A stretch of 64,000 bases of DNA from Candidatus Pacearchaeota archaeon (GTDB lineage Archaea > Nanobdellota > Nanobdellia > Pacearchaeales > GW2011-AR1), in contig JBAZMK010000001.1 of assembly GCA_041649755.1 (NCBI GenBank), positions 66,826-130,825 of the forward strand, in the 5' to 3' direction. Shown here piece by piece: positions 3,087 through 25,162 of the stretch. Position 1 is the first letter of the stretch. Each line of letters opens with the position of its first letter. A program made the translations under genes and the position numbers. The notes beneath the pieces are model-generated. The model worked only from the letters and a program-made list of their open reading frames with translations, did no database searches and was not told where the DNA came from.

Positions 3087-3106
3087 AGGGTTTATCTTGT
3101 TTGATT

Positions 3107-4573
3107 ATGGCAGGAAGAAAAGAGCAGATTGTTGGTGAGAGATTGAGAAAAATTGGTGAGTTAAAAATTTCTGGAACTAATCCTTATCCGCAGAGATTTG
3201 AGAAAAAAAATATGATTAGTGAGTGTTTTAAGATTGATAAGAAAGTTAAAACTGCCGGGAGATTAGTTAGTAAGAGAGATATTGGGAAGATTATTTTTTC
3301 AAAGATTCAGGACGAGTCGGGTTCTATTCAAGTTGTTTTGCAGGAAGGCAAGACTAAACAAGAATTTATTGATTTTTTTAAAAGTTATATAGATTTAGGA
3401 GATATTGTTGGGGTTTCAGGAAAAGTGATTAAGACAAAGACGGGGGAGATTTCAATTCTTTGCGAGAAACTTGAACTTTTGAGTAAGTCAGTTTTACCTT
3501 TGCCTGAAAAGTGGCACGGACTTCAGGAAAAAGAAGACAGATATAGGAAAAGGTATCTGGATATGATTGTTAATCCAGAAGTTTTGGAGGTTTTTAAGAA
3601 GAAAAGTGTGATTATTGATACAATTAGAGGTTATCTGAAAAAAAATAATTTTACAGAGGTTGAGACGCCGAATTTGCAGGCAATTTACGGGGGGGCGAGT
3701 GCAGAACCTTTTAGAACTCATTTGAATGCTCTTGATATGGATTTATTCCTTTCAATTTCTCCAGAACTTTATCTGAAAAGACTTATTGTCGGGGGGTTTG
3801 ATAGGGTTTTTACAATTTCAAAGAACTTTAGGAATGAAGGAATTGATGCTACTCACAATCCTGAGTTTACAATGATGGAATTTTATTGTGCTTATTCAAA
3901 TTATGAAAAACTTATGGTTATGACAGAAGAGATGCTGAAACTTATTTTTAAGAATTTGAAAATAAAGGAAGAAATTAAATCAGGAGAGAAGTTAATTAAA
4001 TTTAAGTTTCCGATAAAAAGGGTCAGGTTTTGGGATTTAATTCTTGAAAAGACGGGAATTGACCTTGAGAAAATGAGCGATTTTGATTCGCTTAAAGAAG
4101 AGATTGAAAGAAAGGGGATAAAGGGGGTTGATATTTCAGGGTGCAAACATTACGGAGCTTTGCTTGATGAACTTTATAAAAGGGTTGTAAGACCGAGCAT
4201 CGTTGAGCCTATTTTCCTTACTCATTACCCTGTTGAGATGATTGCTCTTGCGAAAAGAAATGAAGAAAATCCCAGACTCATTAATACTTTTCAATTAATT
4301 GTTGACGGGGCGGAGCTTGTTAAGGCTTATGACGAGTTGAATGACCCTTTTGACCAAGAGAAGCGTTTAAAGGAGCAGGCCGATTTGCTTTGCGAAGGCG
4401 ACAGGGAAGCAATGCCTATGGACATTGATTTTATTGAAGCTTTGAAAACGGGAATGCCTCCGACAGCAGGTTATGGTATGGGGATTGACAGAATTGCAAT
4501 TTTGCTGACCGAACAAGAGTCTATAAGAGATGTTATTCCTTTCCCTTTTATGAAGCCTGAGGTTGAAGATTGA
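3107..4573 (+). CDS. lysS: Lysyl-tRNA synthetase, class II
   Basis: N-terminal OB anticodon-binding region; class II motif 2 FRNEGIDATHNPEFTMMEFY; motif 3 GMGIDRIAILLT; likely start at ATG 3107 (MAGRKEQ). Confidence 0.9.
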   Translation: MAGRKEQIVGERLRKIGELKISGTNPYPQRFEKKNMISECFKIDKKVKTAGRLVSKRDIGKIIFSKIQDESGSIQVVLQEGKTKQEFIDFFKSYIDLGDIVGVSGKVIKTKTGEISILCEKLELLSKSVLPLPEKWHGLQEKEDRYRKRYLDMIVNPEVLEVFKKKSVIIDTIRGYLKKNNFTEVETPNLQAIYGGASAEPFRTHLNALDMDLFLSISPELYLKRLIVGGFDRVFTISKNFRNEGIDATHNPEFTMMEFYCAYSNYEKLMVMTEEMLKLIFKNLKIKEEIKSGEKLIKFKFPIKRVRFWDLILEKTGIDLEKMSDFDSLKEEIERKGIKGVDISGCKHYGALLDELYKRVVRPSIVEPIFLTHYPVEMIALAKRNEENPRLINTFQLIVDGAELVKAYDELNDPFDQEKRLKEQADLLCEGDREAMPMDIDFIEALKTGMPPTAGYGMGIDRIAILLTEQESIRDVIPFPFMKPEVED

Positions 4574-4576
4574 AAT

Positions 4577-4738
4577 ATGGCGTTGGTGATAAAAAGTAAT
4601 ATTAGAAAGTATGTTGAGGCGAGTGTGTCTGACGAGTTTGAGAGGGAATTTGAGAGGAAAACGGAAGAGATGCTGAAAAAAGCTGAAGAACGGGCGAAGG
4701 CTAACGGGCGAAGGACTCTTTTTGCACGAGATTTATAA
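4577..4738 (+). CDS. Small (53 aa) histone-fold-like / DUF1931-like DNA-binding protein; missed by the ORF track (<60 aa)
   Basis: ATG..TAA frame MALVIKSNIRKYVEASVSDEFEREFERKTEEMLKKAEERAKANGRRTLFARDL; pattern VS.D...E.....EEM...A...A...GRRT..A.D resembles the archaeal histone / DUF1931 helix-strand-helix. Confidence 0.35.
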   Translation: MALVIKSNIRKYVEASVSDEFEREFERKTEEMLKKAEERAKANGRRTLFARDL

Positions 4739-4739
4739 T

Positions 4740-5783
4740 TTAGCAGACAACTTTTCCGTTTAAAATTTGTTCTCTTAAATTATTGATTTCTTCTTCTGTT
4801 TTTTTGGCTCTACCCTTGAGTAATTGTTCTAAATCTTTTGATTCTAATTCTAATATTCTCTTTAAATCTTTGAGTTCTCTTACTATCTGTGAAATCTCTT
4901 TGCTTGTAAGATTTAGATGTGATAGGAATCTGTATCCTTTCGGCATTATGTTCTCTTCAACAGGTTTTTCAAATATGAGACGAGAAATTGATTCTAGGTC
5001 TAAAATTCCTTCAAAAGTAAGATTTTCAAGAAGATTTACAGATTTTTTCAAAGATAATATTGAATAATCTCTAAGAAGTTCACTTTTTGTTTTTTCTATT
5101 CCTCTTAGAAGTTCCCTGTATCTCATCTGCATAACATTGCCTTCTTTTCCGAGTTCTGTAAAACTTTTTTTAATTGATTCTGAGATTTTCATTATCATTT
5201 CTGTTCTTTGGAGGACCTTGCAAACATCACCTACGGAAACGAGTTTTGACATTTCAAGGATGTTGAGGGTTCCTAATTGCTCGTCGAAAATTTCCCTTTG
5301 CTTTTCAAGAATCTGAAGGGTTGAACTAATCTCCCTTATTAATTCTTCTGTTGTTTTAAGATAATACTTTGAGTTTTGGAAATAAAGAGTTGTCTTTCTT
5401 TTTCTTTCTGAGATAGCGATGACAAAAGTTTTTGCCTGTTTTGCTATCCTTTCTGCAGCTTTATGGCGTGTTCCAGTTTCGTTAGTGTGTATGGAGTTGT
5501 CGGGAGTCATTAGTACATTTGCATAGAGAATTCTCTTAAAGTCATCTGAAATTATTATCCCCCCGTCCATTTTGCATAGTTCAAAGAGTTTTTGTGCTGT
5601 AAAACGGCAGTTAATCCTGAATCCTCCCTCAAAAAGCCCTTTTTCGTGAAGTTCGGGAGAATCAAAAACAATTATTGCTCCAAGGTCAGACCTTAAAAGG
5701 TCGTCTATCACATTTCTTAGTGTTGTTCCGGGGGAAACTATCTTTATTAAATCTATGAAGTTTTTCTCTTTTTCTGCAACCAT
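4740..5783 (-). CDS. disA: DisA-type diadenylate cyclase (DNA integrity scanning protein family)
   Basis: DAC domain motifs DGAIIV / DGGIIISDD and RHKAAERIAKQ (bacterial consensus GTRHRAA), helical linker and C-terminal helical region; 347 aa. Confidence 0.8.
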   Translation of the reverse strand: MVAEKEKNFIDLIKIVSPGTTLRNVIDDLLRSDLGAIIVFDSPELHEKGLFEGGFRINCRFTAQKLFELCKMDGGIIISDDFKRILYANVLMTPDNSIHTNETGTRHKAAERIAKQAKTFVIAISERKRKTTLYFQNSKYYLKTTEELIREISSTLQILEKQREIFDEQLGTLNILEMSKLVSVGDVCKVLQRTEMIMKISESIKKSFTELGKEGNVMQMRYRELLRGIEKTKSELLRDYSILSLKKSVNLLENLTFEGILDLESISRLIFEKPVEENIMPKGYRFLSHLNLTSKEISQIVRELKDLKRILELESKDLEQLLKGRAKKTEEEINNLREQILNGKVVC

Positions 5784-5805
5784 GGGGAAAACAAGAACAT
5801 CTACT

Positions 5806-5813
5806 ATTTATAA
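5806..5813 (-). promoter_or_regulatory. TATA box (ttataaat on - strand) about 25 nt upstream of the disA start
   Basis: Reverse complement of 5806-5813 gives GTTATAAATAG; distance to ATG 5783 is about 25 nt. Confidence 0.3.
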
Positions 5814-5909
5814 CTTTATGTATCTCTTCGTATTTACTGGAAAATAAGAAAATGAAATTAAGAAATATAGTATAATAATCTTTAAATAAGTTTTATTTTT
5901 AATTTTTAT

Positions 5910-6272
5910 ATGGGTTTATTCAGTCTATTAGAAAATACTTCCAGCCCTTTTGAAAGACGGAGGATTATTGAAAAGTTTTTAGAAACACAAGATTTATCAA
6001 AAATAATTCCTGCCAAATCAGGACTTTCTAAAGAGGATAGTGTTCCTTCAGAAGATCCTCCTTATCGAGGGGATGTAATAACGGTTCTTCCCTTTGCAAA
6101 AGGTGGCAGATATCGAATAAAAGAACCTATAGTAGAAGATGGTATAGTCTATGTTTTGGGTATTGTTCAGCCCCGTAGTCGGTTACTGGTAGTTGACGAA
6201 AAAGATGACCTTTATGTCTTACATAGGGAGGAGATTTATTTCCCTATCCCCTCTAATCACATTTTTATATAA
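5910..6272 (+). CDS. Hypothetical protein (120 aa)
   Basis: ORF with ATG; no recognisable motifs. Confidence 0.4.
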   Translation: MGLFSLLENTSSPFERRRIIEKFLETQDLSKIIPAKSGLSKEDSVPSEDPPYRGDVITVLPFAKGGRYRIKEPIVEDGIVYVLGIVQPRSRLLVVDEKDDLYVLHREEIYFPIPSNHIFI

Positions 6273-10044: not shown

Positions 10045-10746
10045 ATGTTGGTGAAGCCTTATATAAAAAAATACGGCGAGTTTTCTGGCTTAGTCGCTTG
10101 GATAGTAGACGGCAATTATATAAGAAATAATTTAGAGATTAATTTCACTAATTTTGGTCAGTACCCTCAATTTAAGTTCATCCCCAAAAATGAAATTTGG
10201 ATTGATAAAGAGAGAAGTCCTGGAGAGGAAAAGTTTTTCATAGATTATATGCTTGCACTACATCGCCTTATTTCCCGAGGGATTAAAAAAAAGGAGGCAG
10301 TTGAACTTGCTGAGAAAATAGAGAAAAAAGAGAGGGCAAAAAAAGAATTAATAAAAAAAGAATTCGGTCTAAGCAAAGATTATCCCCAGTTAATTAAGAA
10401 GATTCATAAAAAGAAAATTATTTCTTACAGCAAAAAGATTAAGGTATGGGTTGTTAACGGAGAAATTGTGCGAAGTTTTTTGTTTATAGATTTTACAGAA
10501 GGAGGTCATGATAAGGTGTATTCTTTTATACCTAAGGGAGAGATATGGATTGATGACGACCTTTCGTTAAAAGAAAGAAAATTCGTTCTTCTCCATGAAA
10601 TTCACGAAAGGAATTTGATGGCTAAGGGTATGGAATACGAATCTGCACATAATGATTCAAGCAAAATAGAGCTTTATTGTAGAACGCATCCGAAGGAAAC
10701 AGACAAGAAAATAAGTGCAGAGATTAAGAAACTAAAGTCCAACTAG
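10045..10746 (+). CDS. Hypothetical protein with an internal ~60-aa duplication; second copy carries an HExxH-like motif (LLHEIHE)
   Basis: Repeat 1 VAWIVDGNYIRNN...FKFIPKNEIWIDKERSPGEEKFFIDYMLALHRLISRG aligns with repeat 2 KVWVVNGEIVRSF...YSFIPKGEIWIDDDLSLKERKFVLLHEIHERNLMAKG. Confidence 0.5.
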   Translation: MLVKPYIKKYGEFSGLVAWIVDGNYIRNNLEINFTNFGQYPQFKFIPKNEIWIDKERSPGEEKFFIDYMLALHRLISRGIKKKEAVELAEKIEKKERAKKELIKKEFGLSKDYPQLIKKIHKKKIISYSKKIKVWVVNGEIVRSFLFIDFTEGGHDKVYSFIPKGEIWIDDDLSLKERKFVLLHEIHERNLMAKGMEYESAHNDSSKIELYCRTHPKETDKKISAEIKKLKSN

Positions 10747-12782
10747 ATGTTTCCTCTTTTTAGCAAATCTTTTAGTTTTGCTTCGTTTGCTTCCCTGTCT
10801 TTTATGTTATAAACCTCATAAACTGGGTTTTCCCCAATTTCTTTTAATTTCCTAACTGATAGATCTCTTATTCCTCTTTTCCTTATGTTTTCTGAGACTA
10901 AAATCTTTCCAGAGTCTGAATCTGATATTCTTTTCGCCAGCGAAATTGTGTTTCCAACCCCTGTATACTCAAGTTTACCTTGATTTTTTGATGCGATGAT
11001 GTCCCCTGAATTTACTCCCATGTTGAATTCTATTTTTTCTTTTGACCTTTTATTATATTCACATAATGCCCCCCACAAGGCAAATGCAACTTTTGAAGCA
11101 AGAACTTCATTGGCGTAAGTTTTTGTAACTACTGGTGAAAAAATGATAAAGATGTAATCGCTCTTCCAATCTACTAAACCCCTCTTTGTATCCAAGTCTC
11201 CGATTAACTTTACCAAAGATTCTTTAGCCTGAGTCCCTAAAGTCCCATAATTCTTTATACTTAATGAAATAATTGCTGATGGATATTTCTCTCCCTTTAA
11301 TACTAGGGCTGATTCTGCACCTGATGTTTTTCCCGAGGTTAAATCCAAGGTTTTTTTATCTGATTTACTTTTTTCATATACAATGTCTTCCACTGATTTT
11401 CGCTTTCCTGAACCTCTGAACTTATCCAAAATTTTACTAAGAAAGTTCTTTTCCTCATGATTGTTTTTCTCATTGAGGTTTGTGGTCTTTTGAGATTTTC
11501 TTAACATAACTATTCCTACTCCACCGAATAAAACTATCAGAAATACCCATAAAACAAGATAGTTTCTAAAACTGCCTTTTTCCAAATCATCGATGGAAAT
11601 TGCTCTTCCTGTAAGCAAAACCTGTTTTGACAGGGAGCTTTCTCCGTCTTCAACTAAAACCTCATATTCTCCTTCAGGTGCTCCCAGATTAAACTTTCTT
11701 TGTTCACCCATTTCCATATTTAGATTTAATTCTTTTGTTTCATTTCCTATCTGGACGCTTATAGTCTTGTTGTAACGGGCATTACCAACATTGGTTACGA
11801 TAAGAACGGAACCTTCAATCTCTAAGTTAACTTTTTGAAGTTCTTTCATTTCTATTTCTCTTTCTTCTCCGAGCTTTTCAAAGAAAACTCTTAATTTCCA
11901 GATTCCTGCAGTAGCGTTTGTAGGAAAATTTACTTTAAAATAATCTTTTGTATTCATTAAGACCTCTCTTTCTTCGCCTGAAGGAGAGATTAATTTTCCC
12001 GAAACTTTTCCACTCATTTCTTTTCCCGATTGGTCAAAGACTTCGGCACTTATTGTAAATTCTCCTCCCGGCGTTGCTACATTATCGGATAATGTTAATA
12101 CGAGTGAAGTAGCTACTTGATTTATGTCAAAAGAAATTCTGGACGAACCAGTGTTTAGCCTTCCCTTGCTTCCTAAATCATAAGCAGTTATGTTAAGATA
12201 ATATGTTCCAGCTTCTAATGTTTCAGAAAGACTAAAAGTGTTCATCATCTGCCCAGATTCAACAGCCTTACTAAAGAAGGATGCTTCAGTAACCTCAATG
12301 AACCCATTAAATAAATCCCCATTTGCTTTTACAGCGTCAACCTTTAAGGTTATTGCTTCTTTTGGATTATAAGATTTTTTATCTAGCGTCGGGGTTATAA
12401 AGATTTTATCTGTGATAGTGAAAACTTTTGTAGAGACTGCATTTTGACCTATATAAGCAATAATCTGACAATTTCCTATAATATCTGTTATGTTTTCTAT
12501 CTCAAGGTCTTCCTCATCTAAAATTTTGAAGGGAAGTTCATATACCGAATCTTTCTCTGTCGGAAAAGACCTTGCAGAAACTTTCGCAAGATTAATTGTT
12601 TTGTTGCTACAAACCAAGTCTATGTTAAAATTCCCACTTTCTTCCCCTCTTACTCCACTTACAGTTACATATAATTTATCTTTTAAATTGTATGTTCCTA
12701 AAGGTTCGGAAATAGACATTTCTGCGAAAACTAATGAAGTTAAAAAAAGCATAATAAGTATTAATCCCAATCTCTTTTTCAT
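10743..12782 (-). CDS. Membrane-anchored protein: signal peptide, large extracellular domain, one TM, cytoplasmic class III nucleotidyl-cyclase-like (CHD) domain
   Basis: Signal MKKRLGLILIMLFLTSLVFA; TM YLVLWVFLIVLFGGVGIVML; C-terminal FNMGVNSGDIIAS...YTGVGNTISLAKRISDSDSGKILVSENI matches the CHD consensus (GxhxGxvvaG...Y.v.G..VN.AsR.e....g.I.vSe). Confidence 0.6.
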   Translation of the reverse strand: MKKRLGLILIMLFLTSLVFAEMSISEPLGTYNLKDKLYVTVSGVRGEESGNFNIDLVCSNKTINLAKVSARSFPTEKDSVYELPFKILDEEDLEIENITDIIGNCQIIAYIGQNAVSTKVFTITDKIFITPTLDKKSYNPKEAITLKVDAVKANGDLFNGFIEVTEASFFSKAVESGQMMNTFSLSETLEAGTYYLNITAYDLGSKGRLNTGSSRISFDINQVATSLVLTLSDNVATPGGEFTISAEVFDQSGKEMSGKVSGKLISPSGEEREVLMNTKDYFKVNFPTNATAGIWKLRVFFEKLGEEREIEMKELQKVNLEIEGSVLIVTNVGNARYNKTISVQIGNETKELNLNMEMGEQRKFNLGAPEGEYEVLVEDGESSLSKQVLLTGRAISIDDLEKGSFRNYLVLWVFLIVLFGGVGIVMLRKSQKTTNLNEKNNHEEKNFLSKILDKFRGSGKRKSVEDIVYEKSKSDKKTLDLTSGKTSGAESALVLKGEKYPSAIISLSIKNYGTLGTQAKESLVKLIGDLDTKRGLVDWKSDYIFIIFSPVVTKTYANEVLASKVAFALWGALCEYNKRSKEKIEFNMGVNSGDIIASKNQGKLEYTGVGNTISLAKRISDSDSGKILVSENIRKRGIRDLSVRKLKEIGENPVYEVYNIKDREANEAKLKDLLKRGNI

Positions 12783-21968: not shown

Positions 21969-22262
21969 TCAATGCAAGATCTCCAATAAATATTTCCCTT
22001 TTCCGGAGATATTTAATTTCCAGTTCTTAACGTCAACAAACTTTGTCGCAACAAAATTATCGTCAAGCCAGACTGCCTTGAAAGGTTTGCAGAAAAAAGA
22101 GTGAATAGAAATTTTCTTTTCTCGGTTAAATACAAATAATAGTGGCGGACTTCTACGACGGAACATCAATCCAAGAAATTTTTGAGGAATTGTTTTTAAG
22201 ACTTTCGCGTTTACCGAATGTTTCTTTCCTTTAAACCTATAATTGATATTCTTTAAAACCAT
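21969..22262 (-). CDS. DUF192 (COG1430) family protein
   Basis: GLMFRRRSPPLLFVFNREKKISIHSFFCKPFKAVWLDDN matches DUF192 (GLMxR...FW..N...PLD). Confidence 0.5.
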   Translation of the reverse strand: MVLKNINYRFKGKKHSVNAKVLKTIPQKFLGLMFRRRSPPLLFVFNREKKISIHSFFCKPFKAVWLDDNFVATKFVDVKNWKLNISGKGKYLLEILH

Positions 22263-22648
22263 CCCTTTTCCTCTTTTTTCCTTATAAATTTTTGATAGAC
22301 GTTTTCAACGGAACTTTCGTGAACTTTATCGTGATGAATAAAACCCCCACCGAAAGATTTTGGAATGTGCATTAATTCATGAATCACTACTTTTACTTTT
22401 TCATTATAGGGGAGTTTGTCAAATCTCTCTGAGATTACTTCAATAAGGTAAAATCCTTTTTTTCTTCCCATCCCAATTTGCATCGCTTTTCCAAGGGCAT
22501 GACATCTTGCGATTGTCCTCCTTGCTGAAGAGCCACGACTCCTAAGAAAAGCTACGTGCTCAAGAAAAATGTGGTCCCAATCTAAGTTGTAGATAATTTC
22601 CTCTGCGATTTTTTTTATGTCAGGTGCTTGTTCGTATTTAATTGGCAT
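22253..22648 (-). CDS. Zincin-like putative metallopeptidase (HExxH)
   Basis: VVIHELMHIPKSFGGGFIHHD. Confidence 0.5.
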   Translation of the reverse strand: MPIKYEQAPDIKKIAEEIIYNLDWDHIFLEHVAFLRSRGSSARRTIARCHALGKAMQIGMGRKKGFYLIEVISERFDKLPYNEKVKVVIHELMHIPKSFGGGFIHHDKVHESSVENVYQKFIRKKEEKGWF

Positions 22649-25042: not shown

Positions 25043-25159
25043 GGTGAGCCCGTAGCTCAGCCAGGTAGAGCACTGCTCTTATATGACTGCGATTCAATGA
25101 ATTGTAGATTTTCTTCAGTCGAAGGAAGGCAGGGGTCCTGGGTTCAAATCCCAGCGGGC
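25043..25159 (+). tRNA. tRNA with a 43-nt intron at the canonical 37/38 position; anticodon reads TAT, so tRNA-Ile(UAU)
   Basis: Hand-folded cloverleaf: acceptor GAGCCCG/CGGGCTC, D stem GCTC/GAGC with GG in the loop, anticodon stem CTGCT/GGCAG, T stem CTGGG/CCCAG with TTCAAAT loop, discriminator A, no encoded CCA; exon 1 25043-25080, intron 25081-25123, exon 2 25124-25159. Confidence 0.75.
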
Positions 25160-25162
25160 TCA

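Follow-up and report, generated by a model that had tools for sequence, protein, structure and literature searches.

The bacterial DisA proteins (T. maritima TM0200, B. subtilis DisA and M. tuberculosis Rv3586) have a length of about 357–360 amino acids (aa) and are built from three domains. In the archaea, reviews describe cyclic di-AMP (c-di-AMP) almost entirely through DacZ/CdaZ in the Euryarchaeota. These proteins, represented by H. volcanii HVO_1660, M. jannaschii CdaZ and P. yayanosii PyaDAC, likewise make c-di-AMP with a diadenylate cyclase (DAC) domain (PMC6741144, PMC10249747, PMC12699388), and a 2025 study found dacZ to be absent from DPANN and inferred that adoption of the messenger was restricted to the Euryarchaeota (PMC12699388). 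Our full-text search of the literature found no paper on DisA in Pacearchaeota, Woesearchaeota, Nanoarchaeota or DPANN. To our knowledge, experimental work on archaeal c-di-AMP has been confined to the Euryarchaeota and to DacZ. Here we analyse a disA gene carried on the reverse strand of a 64-kb stretch of contig JBAZMK010000001.1, from a Candidatus Pacearchaeota archaeon; we refer to the whole stretch as the window.

The window protein, of 347 aa, has the same three domains as bacterial DisA, and the catalytic D-G, T-R-H and S-x-R residues are common to both. It differs from the bacterial proteins in its archaeal host and its putative promoter of B recognition element (BRE)/TATA type, in the sequences RHK and DGG, in the deletion of the second helix-hairpin-helix (HhH) hairpin and in a neutral C-terminal domain. 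The gene neighbours differ too, with no adjacent radA/sms and, in the relatives, a RecJ-like DHH/DHHA1 gene downstream. We estimate a probability of about 85% that this is a functional DisA-family cyclase of the Pacearchaeota (DPANN, Nanobdellati), acquired in ancient times and inherited vertically since, that acts mainly as a c-di-AMP synthase and is expressed from its own BRE/TATA promoter.

A full-length DisA with conserved catalytic residues

The gene and the domains of its product are placed as follows.

4740..5783, reverse strand: disA coding sequence, 347 aa plus stop codon, with an ATG start (open reading frame (ORF) call, NCBIfam DisA equivalog, AlphaFold2 model, and ratio of non-synonymous to synonymous substitution (dN/dS))
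5373..5708, reverse strand: DAC domain, residues 26–137 (Pfam PF02457; aligns with the DAC domain of T. maritima DisA)
4974..5360, reverse strand: DisA-linker helical domain, residues 142–270 (Pfam PF10635; long paired helices 145–178 and 184–226 in the model)
4743..4946, reverse strand: C-terminal helical domain, residues 280–347, the equivalent of DisA domain 3 with a degenerate HhH (superposition within the full-length structural match)

The protein is a full-length DisA, and is neither DacZ nor a stand-alone DAC domain. Residues 4–342 align with positions 4–353 of the 357 in NF010009, the NCBIfam DisA equivalog, with a score of 321.1 bits (E = 9e-96) where the family cut-off is 201 bits. 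Pfam recognizes the DAC domain at 78.7 bits (E = 3.5e-22) and the DisA-linker at 96.1 bits (E = 2e-27). The best solved relative is T. maritima DisA (3c1y; E = 1e-55 over residues 8–337, 33% identity), followed by 9y4s and 7y0d, which Foldseek names as the DisA of M. tuberculosis and M. smegmatis. An AlphaFold2 model of the monomer, with 66 homologues as input, has a mean predicted local distance difference test score (pLDDT) of 91. Foldseek matches this model to M. tuberculosis DisA 9y4s with a template modelling (TM) score of 0.85, and to T. maritima 3c1y with 0.84 (~348 columns). The architecture proposed in the initial annotation, in which an N-terminal DAC domain is followed by a linker and then a C-terminal domain, both helical, is upheld. 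The motif strings it had read in the ORF are also there, DGGIIISDD at residues 73–81 and RHKAAERIAKQ at residues 106–116.

Other families of cyclase are readily distinguished. In DacZ a PK_C-like domain comes first and the DAC domain last, without a DisA linker or HhH domain, whereas in the window protein the DAC domain is N-terminal. The haloarchaeal DacZ model NF041371 has a cut-off of 430 bits and gives the protein only 16.6, in keeping with the earlier claim of a non-DacZ cyclase in an archaeal genome. The DAC fold is shared with CdaA, CdaS and CdaM, but Foldseek aligns these through the DAC domain only (TM about 0.65–0.7), and the window protein has neither transmembrane helices nor the N-terminal helices of YojJ type. 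Their NCBIfam models score 20–27 bits (cut-offs 189–225), the CdaA model TIGR00159 giving only 26.2 bits against 188.8. The DisA annotation is correct and robust, yet the public databases already carry the same call. The NCBI entry for an identical protein, encoded on a contig of 203,764 bp, has the title ‘MAG: DNA integrity scanning diadenylate cyclase DisA [Candidatus Pacearchaeota archaeon]’, and the novelty for this window is low.

Two motifs of the DAC domain were located by alignment of orthologues.

5559..5567, reverse strand: DGG motif, D73-G74-G75 (DGA, D75-G76-A77, in T. maritima DisA)
5460..5471, reverse strand: nucleotide/phosphate-binding motif, T105-R106-H107-K108 (TRHR, 107–110, in T. 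maritima)

The catalytic residues were compared in 51 archaeal orthologues, T. maritima DisA and five bacterial DisAs. D73, G74, R106, H107, S125 and R127 are invariant across the archaeal orthologues and T105 is conserved at 90%; conservation of the catalytic residues is likewise seen across 66 database homologues. The possibility, raised at the outset, that the DAC motif residues might prove not to be conserved on alignment is thus not borne out. The window D73 corresponds to D75 of T. maritima DisA, of which the D75N form (PDB 4yxm) is an inactive mutant. At position 75 alanine is found in 80% of the archaeal orthologues and glycine in the window protein. At position 108 there is lysine in 92% of the archaeal orthologues and arginine in every bacterial sequence compared, so that RHK reads as a signature of the clade rather than a defect. 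Both G75 and K108 are conservative changes.

Could the protein nevertheless have lost its activity, so that it makes no c-di-AMP and is kept as a DisA-like scaffold with a structural role or for binding DNA or protein? The DGG and RHK sequences deviate from the bacterial consensus beside catalytic residues, no phosphodiesterase or receptor is seen in the window, and signalling based on dacZ is reported to be absent from DPANN (PMC12699388). Yet D73, G74, T105, R106, H107, S125 and R127 show little or no variation throughout the clade. The exchange of arginine for lysine is conservative and fixed clade-wide, and Gly75 is a minority variant of alanine. Moreover the dN/dS of disA against its three closest relatives is 0.035–0.062, or about 0.04, and the DAC motifs are among the best conserved columns. 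We therefore regard a dead scaffold as improbable.

Host, putative promoter and descent of the archaeal gene

The contig is clearly archaeal. It carries genes for EF-2, Kae1, a threonyl-tRNA synthetase (ThrRS) whose editing domain is of the archaea-specific kind, L15e, L7Ae/S28e/L24e, the proteasome alpha subunit, a Rad51-type recombinase and Mre11/Rad50, and these markers confirm the archaeal context claimed for the gene. SMC and RNase HII are also encoded on the contig, and the GC content is even at about 35%. Two further features of the window were noted. ARAGORN finds no tRNA in the window, and misses a 117-nt tRNA at 25046-25162 on the forward strand that Rfam matches with 56.7 bits, probably because it is an intron-containing archaeal tRNA. 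Pfam assigns a protein of 131 aa, at 22253-22648 on the reverse strand, to the family PhageMetallopep (putative phage metallopeptidase; 75.7 bits), and this gene may be what is left of a virus or mobile element in the archaeal contig.

A putative promoter precedes the gene, identified by reading the sequence and by its conservation across loci.

5805..5820, reverse strand: putative archaeal BRE/TATA promoter, CATAAAG-TTATAAATA

The TATAAA begins 29 nt 5′ of the disA ATG and follows an A-rich, BRE-like stretch. With this spacing the disA mRNA would be leaderless or nearly so. Of 52 archaeal loci, 38 (the window included) have TATAAA at exactly –29, and 50 have a TATA-like hexamer in the interval from –40 to –22. 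Such conservation is consistent with the element functioning as a promoter.

DisA of this type is well represented in related archaea. The best 120 database clusters have 64–91% identity with the window protein and are nearly all of 347 aa, and where names are given they are Pacearchaeota, Nanoarchaeota or simply archaeon. Among the species representatives of GTDB at least 52 archaeal genomes (Pacearchaeota, Woesearchaeota or Nanoarchaeota) have an orthologue at 53–77% identity. An exhaustive search of the representatives yields intermediates at 40–51% identity, comprising the Woesearchaeota protein PIN77897.1, the Nanoarchaeia protein HKL23657.1 and further Pacearchaeota, and a cluster farther off bears the name Candidatus ainarchaeum. 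Below the archaeal set the best bacterial matches are from Cetobacterium at 38% and Atopobiaceae at 31–33% identity. In a neighbour-joining tree the sequences of Pacearchaeota and Woesearchaeota form one clade.

The divergent arrangement of kae1 and disA is retained in about 25 loci. In the window an ORF of 120 aa lies between the two genes (5910-6272, forward strand), and is also called in two contigs of identical sequence (L081 and L082). It has no Pfam match, and no homologue among 52 related GTDB loci. We considered it as a component of the system and rejected it, as it is not conserved at other loci; it is a lineage-specific insertion in an otherwise short divergent promoter region.

These data bear on whether the gene might have come recently from bacteria, or whether a bacterial contaminant or chimeric piece has entered an archaeal bin. 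DisA is indeed overwhelmingly bacterial (census in PMC12901056; reviews PMC10249747, PMC6741144), and a few public records carry labels that would fit such an origin. One locus (L048, JBNMFJ010000005.1) is labelled ‘Patescibacteria group bacterium’, and two DisAs of Pacearchaeota type (P0088 and P0089) are labelled ‘Methanococcoides sp. SA1’ or ‘Proteobacteria bacterium’. But the Kae1 of L048 is archaeal, being 63% identical to that of the window, so that its label is wrong; the bacterial and Methanococcoides labels on DisAs of Pacearchaeota type are probably errors of binning or taxonomy in the public records. The best bacterial identity of 38% contrasts with 53–91% among more than 50 archaeal species. 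Archaeal genes lie on both flanks, in contigs of 99–204 kb from independent samples, the kae1-disA synteny and the TATA box at –29 are conserved, and the GC content is uniform. Recent transfer or contamination is thus effectively excluded.

We conclude that disA is a long-domesticated archaeal gene, inherited vertically across the clade. If it did come from bacteria, the transfer predates the radiation of the Pacearchaeota and Woesearchaeota. Any such event must be ancient, and later inheritance vertical, because the orthologues, the synteny and the TATA box are shared while the best bacterial match is so distant. The horizontal acquisition suggested in the initial annotation can therefore stand as an ancient event but not as a recent one. 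Routine vertical presence across the clade had been named beforehand as an outcome that lowers the novelty of the gene, and this is what we find.

The C-terminal domain and the gene neighbourhood

The C-terminal domain is one of the points in which the archaeal proteins differ from bacterial DisA. The second HhH hairpin of T. maritima DisA is VEGIGEKRA. At this site the sequence is DLKKVEGIGEKRARAI in T. maritima and DLEQLLKGRAKKT in the window, with LEPILKNRA in most relatives. The archaeal sequences are shorter here by three residues and have no G-h-G hairpin. In the model a single continuous helix, residues 315–341, occupies the place of the hairpin. When the C-terminal 75 residues are scanned for the pattern G[IVLFMA]G, 61 of 87 bacterial-type representatives contain it, as against 1 of 51 and 0 of 13 sequences in two sets from the archaeal clade. 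Over the same 75 residues the mean net charge is –0.4 in the archaeal clade and +3.6 in the bacterial-type representatives. No Pfam HHH family matches the window protein or four other archaeal DisAs, even at E ≤ 1, whereas HHH_2, HHH_5 or HHH is matched in all four bacterial-type representatives used as controls and in one sequence of the sister group.

RadA/Sms is a known partner and regulator of DisA in bacteria. Of 28 bacterial disA loci, 15 have its signature KNRFG upstream of disA in the same orientation. The signature does not occur in the window, nor at the corresponding position in any of the 52 archaeal loci.

The initial annotation had linked the gene to DNA-integrity scanning through a C-terminal region resembling a DNA-binding domain. 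A classical DisA of the Bacillus/Thermotoga kind would bind branched or stalled-fork DNA, switch off the synthesis of c-di-AMP and so connect damage to a checkpoint. Several observations fit such a function. All three domains superpose on the solved DisAs at TM 0.84–0.85 and the threshold of the NCBIfam equivalog is passed; the operon partner in the relatives has the RecJ/Cdc45-like DHH fold of DNA metabolism; and Mre11/Rad50, a Rad51-type recombinase, a UvrD-like helicase and Endo IV are encoded in the window, though not adjacent to disA. Against this, the VEGIGEKRA hairpin is deleted throughout the clade in favour of a continuous helix, there is no Pfam HHH signal where the bacterial controls are positive, the C-terminal 75 aa are about neutral, and RadA/Sms is not nearby. 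Scanning in the bacterial manner is doubtful because the second HhH hairpin has gone from the DNA-binding domain. The proposed link is not established, and we think it unlikely that the classical mechanism operates here.

In place of radA/sms, most of the relatives have a different neighbour. Clustering of the neighbours reveals a gene of about 345 aa directly downstream of disA in 45 of 52 archaeal loci (e.g. L003:7038-8099 and L002:7217-8263). The gaps are mostly –6 to +2 nt, often with overlap of the disA stop codon, which indicates that the two genes form an operon. The product contains the Pfam domains DHH and DHHA1, with the catalytic motifs DxD, D, DHH, D and GGGH all invariant. By sequence profile it is nearest to archaeal RecJ, GAN and RecJ2 (E = 4e-12 to 3e-8), with TmPDE at E = 0.08. 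It scores 48–60 bits against the RecJ family models, where the cut-off is 360, and is about 100 aa shorter. A model of the partner (pLDDT 93) is most similar to RecJ-Cdc45 of M. thermautotrophicus (TMq 0.70), and then to RecJ2, the cores of bacterial RecJ and PAP phosphatase; GdpP, Rv2837c and TmPDE are not among the top 50 structural matches. The partner may be a nuclease or a phosphodiesterase of c-di-AMP or pApA. The only archaeal c-di-AMP phosphodiesterase that we found described in the literature is a TrkA_N-DHH-DHHA1 enzyme from Pyrococcus (PMC12699388).

The partner gene is not found in the 64-kb window (tblastn and Pfam scan), nor in the adjoining 5 kb outside the window, beyond its start (ENA contig L081). 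In its place the window, and the contigs of relatives at 85–91% identity, have a convergent ORF of 53 aa and a class II lysyl-tRNA synthetase (LysRS). In the closest species representative (L001, DisA 77% identical) the DHH gene is on another contig (L089), between rpS12-rpS7 and deoxyhypusine synthase. In L001, at least, the partner has therefore not been lost: a rearrangement has separated the two genes of the module. The same presumably applies to the window genome.

The genes that now adjoin disA have features of their own. The 53-aa ORF (window 4577-4738, forward strand) lies between the stop codons of LysRS and disA and is also a called gene in two further contigs (L083 and L085). It has a sub-threshold likeness to DUF1931 (E = 0.009) and to histone-fold families (E = 0.05). 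The class II LysRS, at 3101-4573 on the forward strand, is convergent to disA and precedes orf211 and EF-2, as it does in the relatives of 85–91% identity. At the same syntenic position L001 has an archaeal class I LysRS (L001:4376-5857, reverse strand; TIGR00467, 470 bits). It looks as though one class of LysRS has been displaced in place by the other. In Atopobiaceae loci, too, a LysRS gene is found within a few kb of disA. We rejected co-transfer of lysS and disA, since the two are adjacent only in the sublineage of the window itself.

Taken as a whole, the clade may have a distinct DisA subfamily of the Pacearchaeota and Woesearchaeota that has given up scanning by HhH. In this proposal, which we advance only tentatively, disA and the gene for a miniature DHH/DHHA1 protein of RecJ/Cdc45-like type would make up a module of two genes; the partner protein could be the c-di-AMP/pApA phosphodiesterase so far missing from DPANN archaea, or a replication or repair nuclease tied to c-di-AMP, and the module would have been split in the lineage of the window.

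Possible signalling by c-di-AMP in the Pacearchaeota

We looked for other parts of a c-di-AMP system in the window. Rfam finds no c-di-AMP (ydaO/kimA) riboswitch in the 64 kb. A Pfam scan of every ORF of at least 120 aa reveals no DHH/DHHA1 or HD-type phosphodiesterase, and no receptor of the RCK_C, CBS, PII or USP families; the search for a phosphodiesterase and receptors called for in the initial annotation thus finds none within the window. A richer repertoire of second messengers had also been proposed on the basis of a ‘CHD-like’ protein of 679 aa (10743-12782, reverse strand), and for this we find no firm support. Its match to the Pfam family Guanylate_cyc is marginal, with a partial domain at 22.1 bits against a cut-off of 21.9. 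Alignment with an adenylyl cyclase C2 domain covers 67 residues (E = 0.02), and about 67–90 residues align with cyclase domains. A homologue of the CHD-like protein, 29% identical, is encoded directly upstream of disA in another Pacearchaeota locus (L045:3440-5407).

How might the archaeal protein work? By homology to the DisA of T. maritima and M. tuberculosis, it most likely assembles as an octamer through the helical linker. Paired N-terminal DAC domains would face each other in the octamer, and two molecules of ATP would be condensed to c-di-AMP using D73/G74, T105-R106-H107-K108 and S125/R127. The gene would be transcribed from its own archaeal BRE/TATA promoter. It was presumably gained from bacteria, long ago, by an ancestor of the Pacearchaeota/Woesearchaeota radiation, and has since descended vertically under strong purifying selection. 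The archaeal subfamily has RHK for the bacterial RHR, has lost the second HhH hairpin and has a C-terminal domain that is no longer basic; its disA is unpaired with radA/sms, and in most relatives is translationally coupled to the short RecJ-like DHH/DHHA1 phosphoesterase. We suggest that the protein acts mainly as the c-di-AMP synthase of the cell. Its output is probably modulated not by classical DNA scanning but by the C-terminal domain, by way of a nucleic acid or a partner protein.

A number of points weigh against this interpretation. G75 (DGG in place of the usual DGA) and K108 (RHK in place of the bacterial RHR) adjoin catalytic residues. The C-terminal domain keeps the fold of DisA domain 3 together with the first HhH-like element, and may retain some binding of DNA. 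The neighbour-joining tree is coarse, and points to no donor lineage. The window has yielded no phosphodiesterase, receptor or riboswitch that would complete a c-di-AMP pathway in this genome. Finally, whereas the data show the identity and fold of the protein, the conservation of its motifs and promoter, its distribution and its synteny, we infer the octamer, the enzymatic activity, the mode of regulation and the processes under the control of c-di-AMP.

For this gene our analysis offers confirmation and context and not discovery, given the existing public annotation. The leads in the clade as a whole, all inferred from sequence, seem modestly interesting: RHK, the loss of the HhH hairpin, a neighbourhood that lacks radA, and the RecJ-like DHH/DHHA1 operon partner that has become unlinked in this lineage. 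It is very likely that reduced, probably symbiotic DPANN cells make c-di-AMP, because an intact cyclase of DisA type, with a putative archaeal promoter of its own, is stably encoded across a large DPANN radiation. This bears on how minimal archaea regulate their ion and osmotic balance, or their DNA metabolism. The conserved disA-DHH/DHHA1 operon provides a concrete candidate for the turnover of c-di-AMP, or for the coupling of DisA to replication or repair. If the partner does prove to be such a phosphodiesterase or nuclease, c-di-AMP signalling would be extended to a superphylum that the recent literature calls devoid of it.

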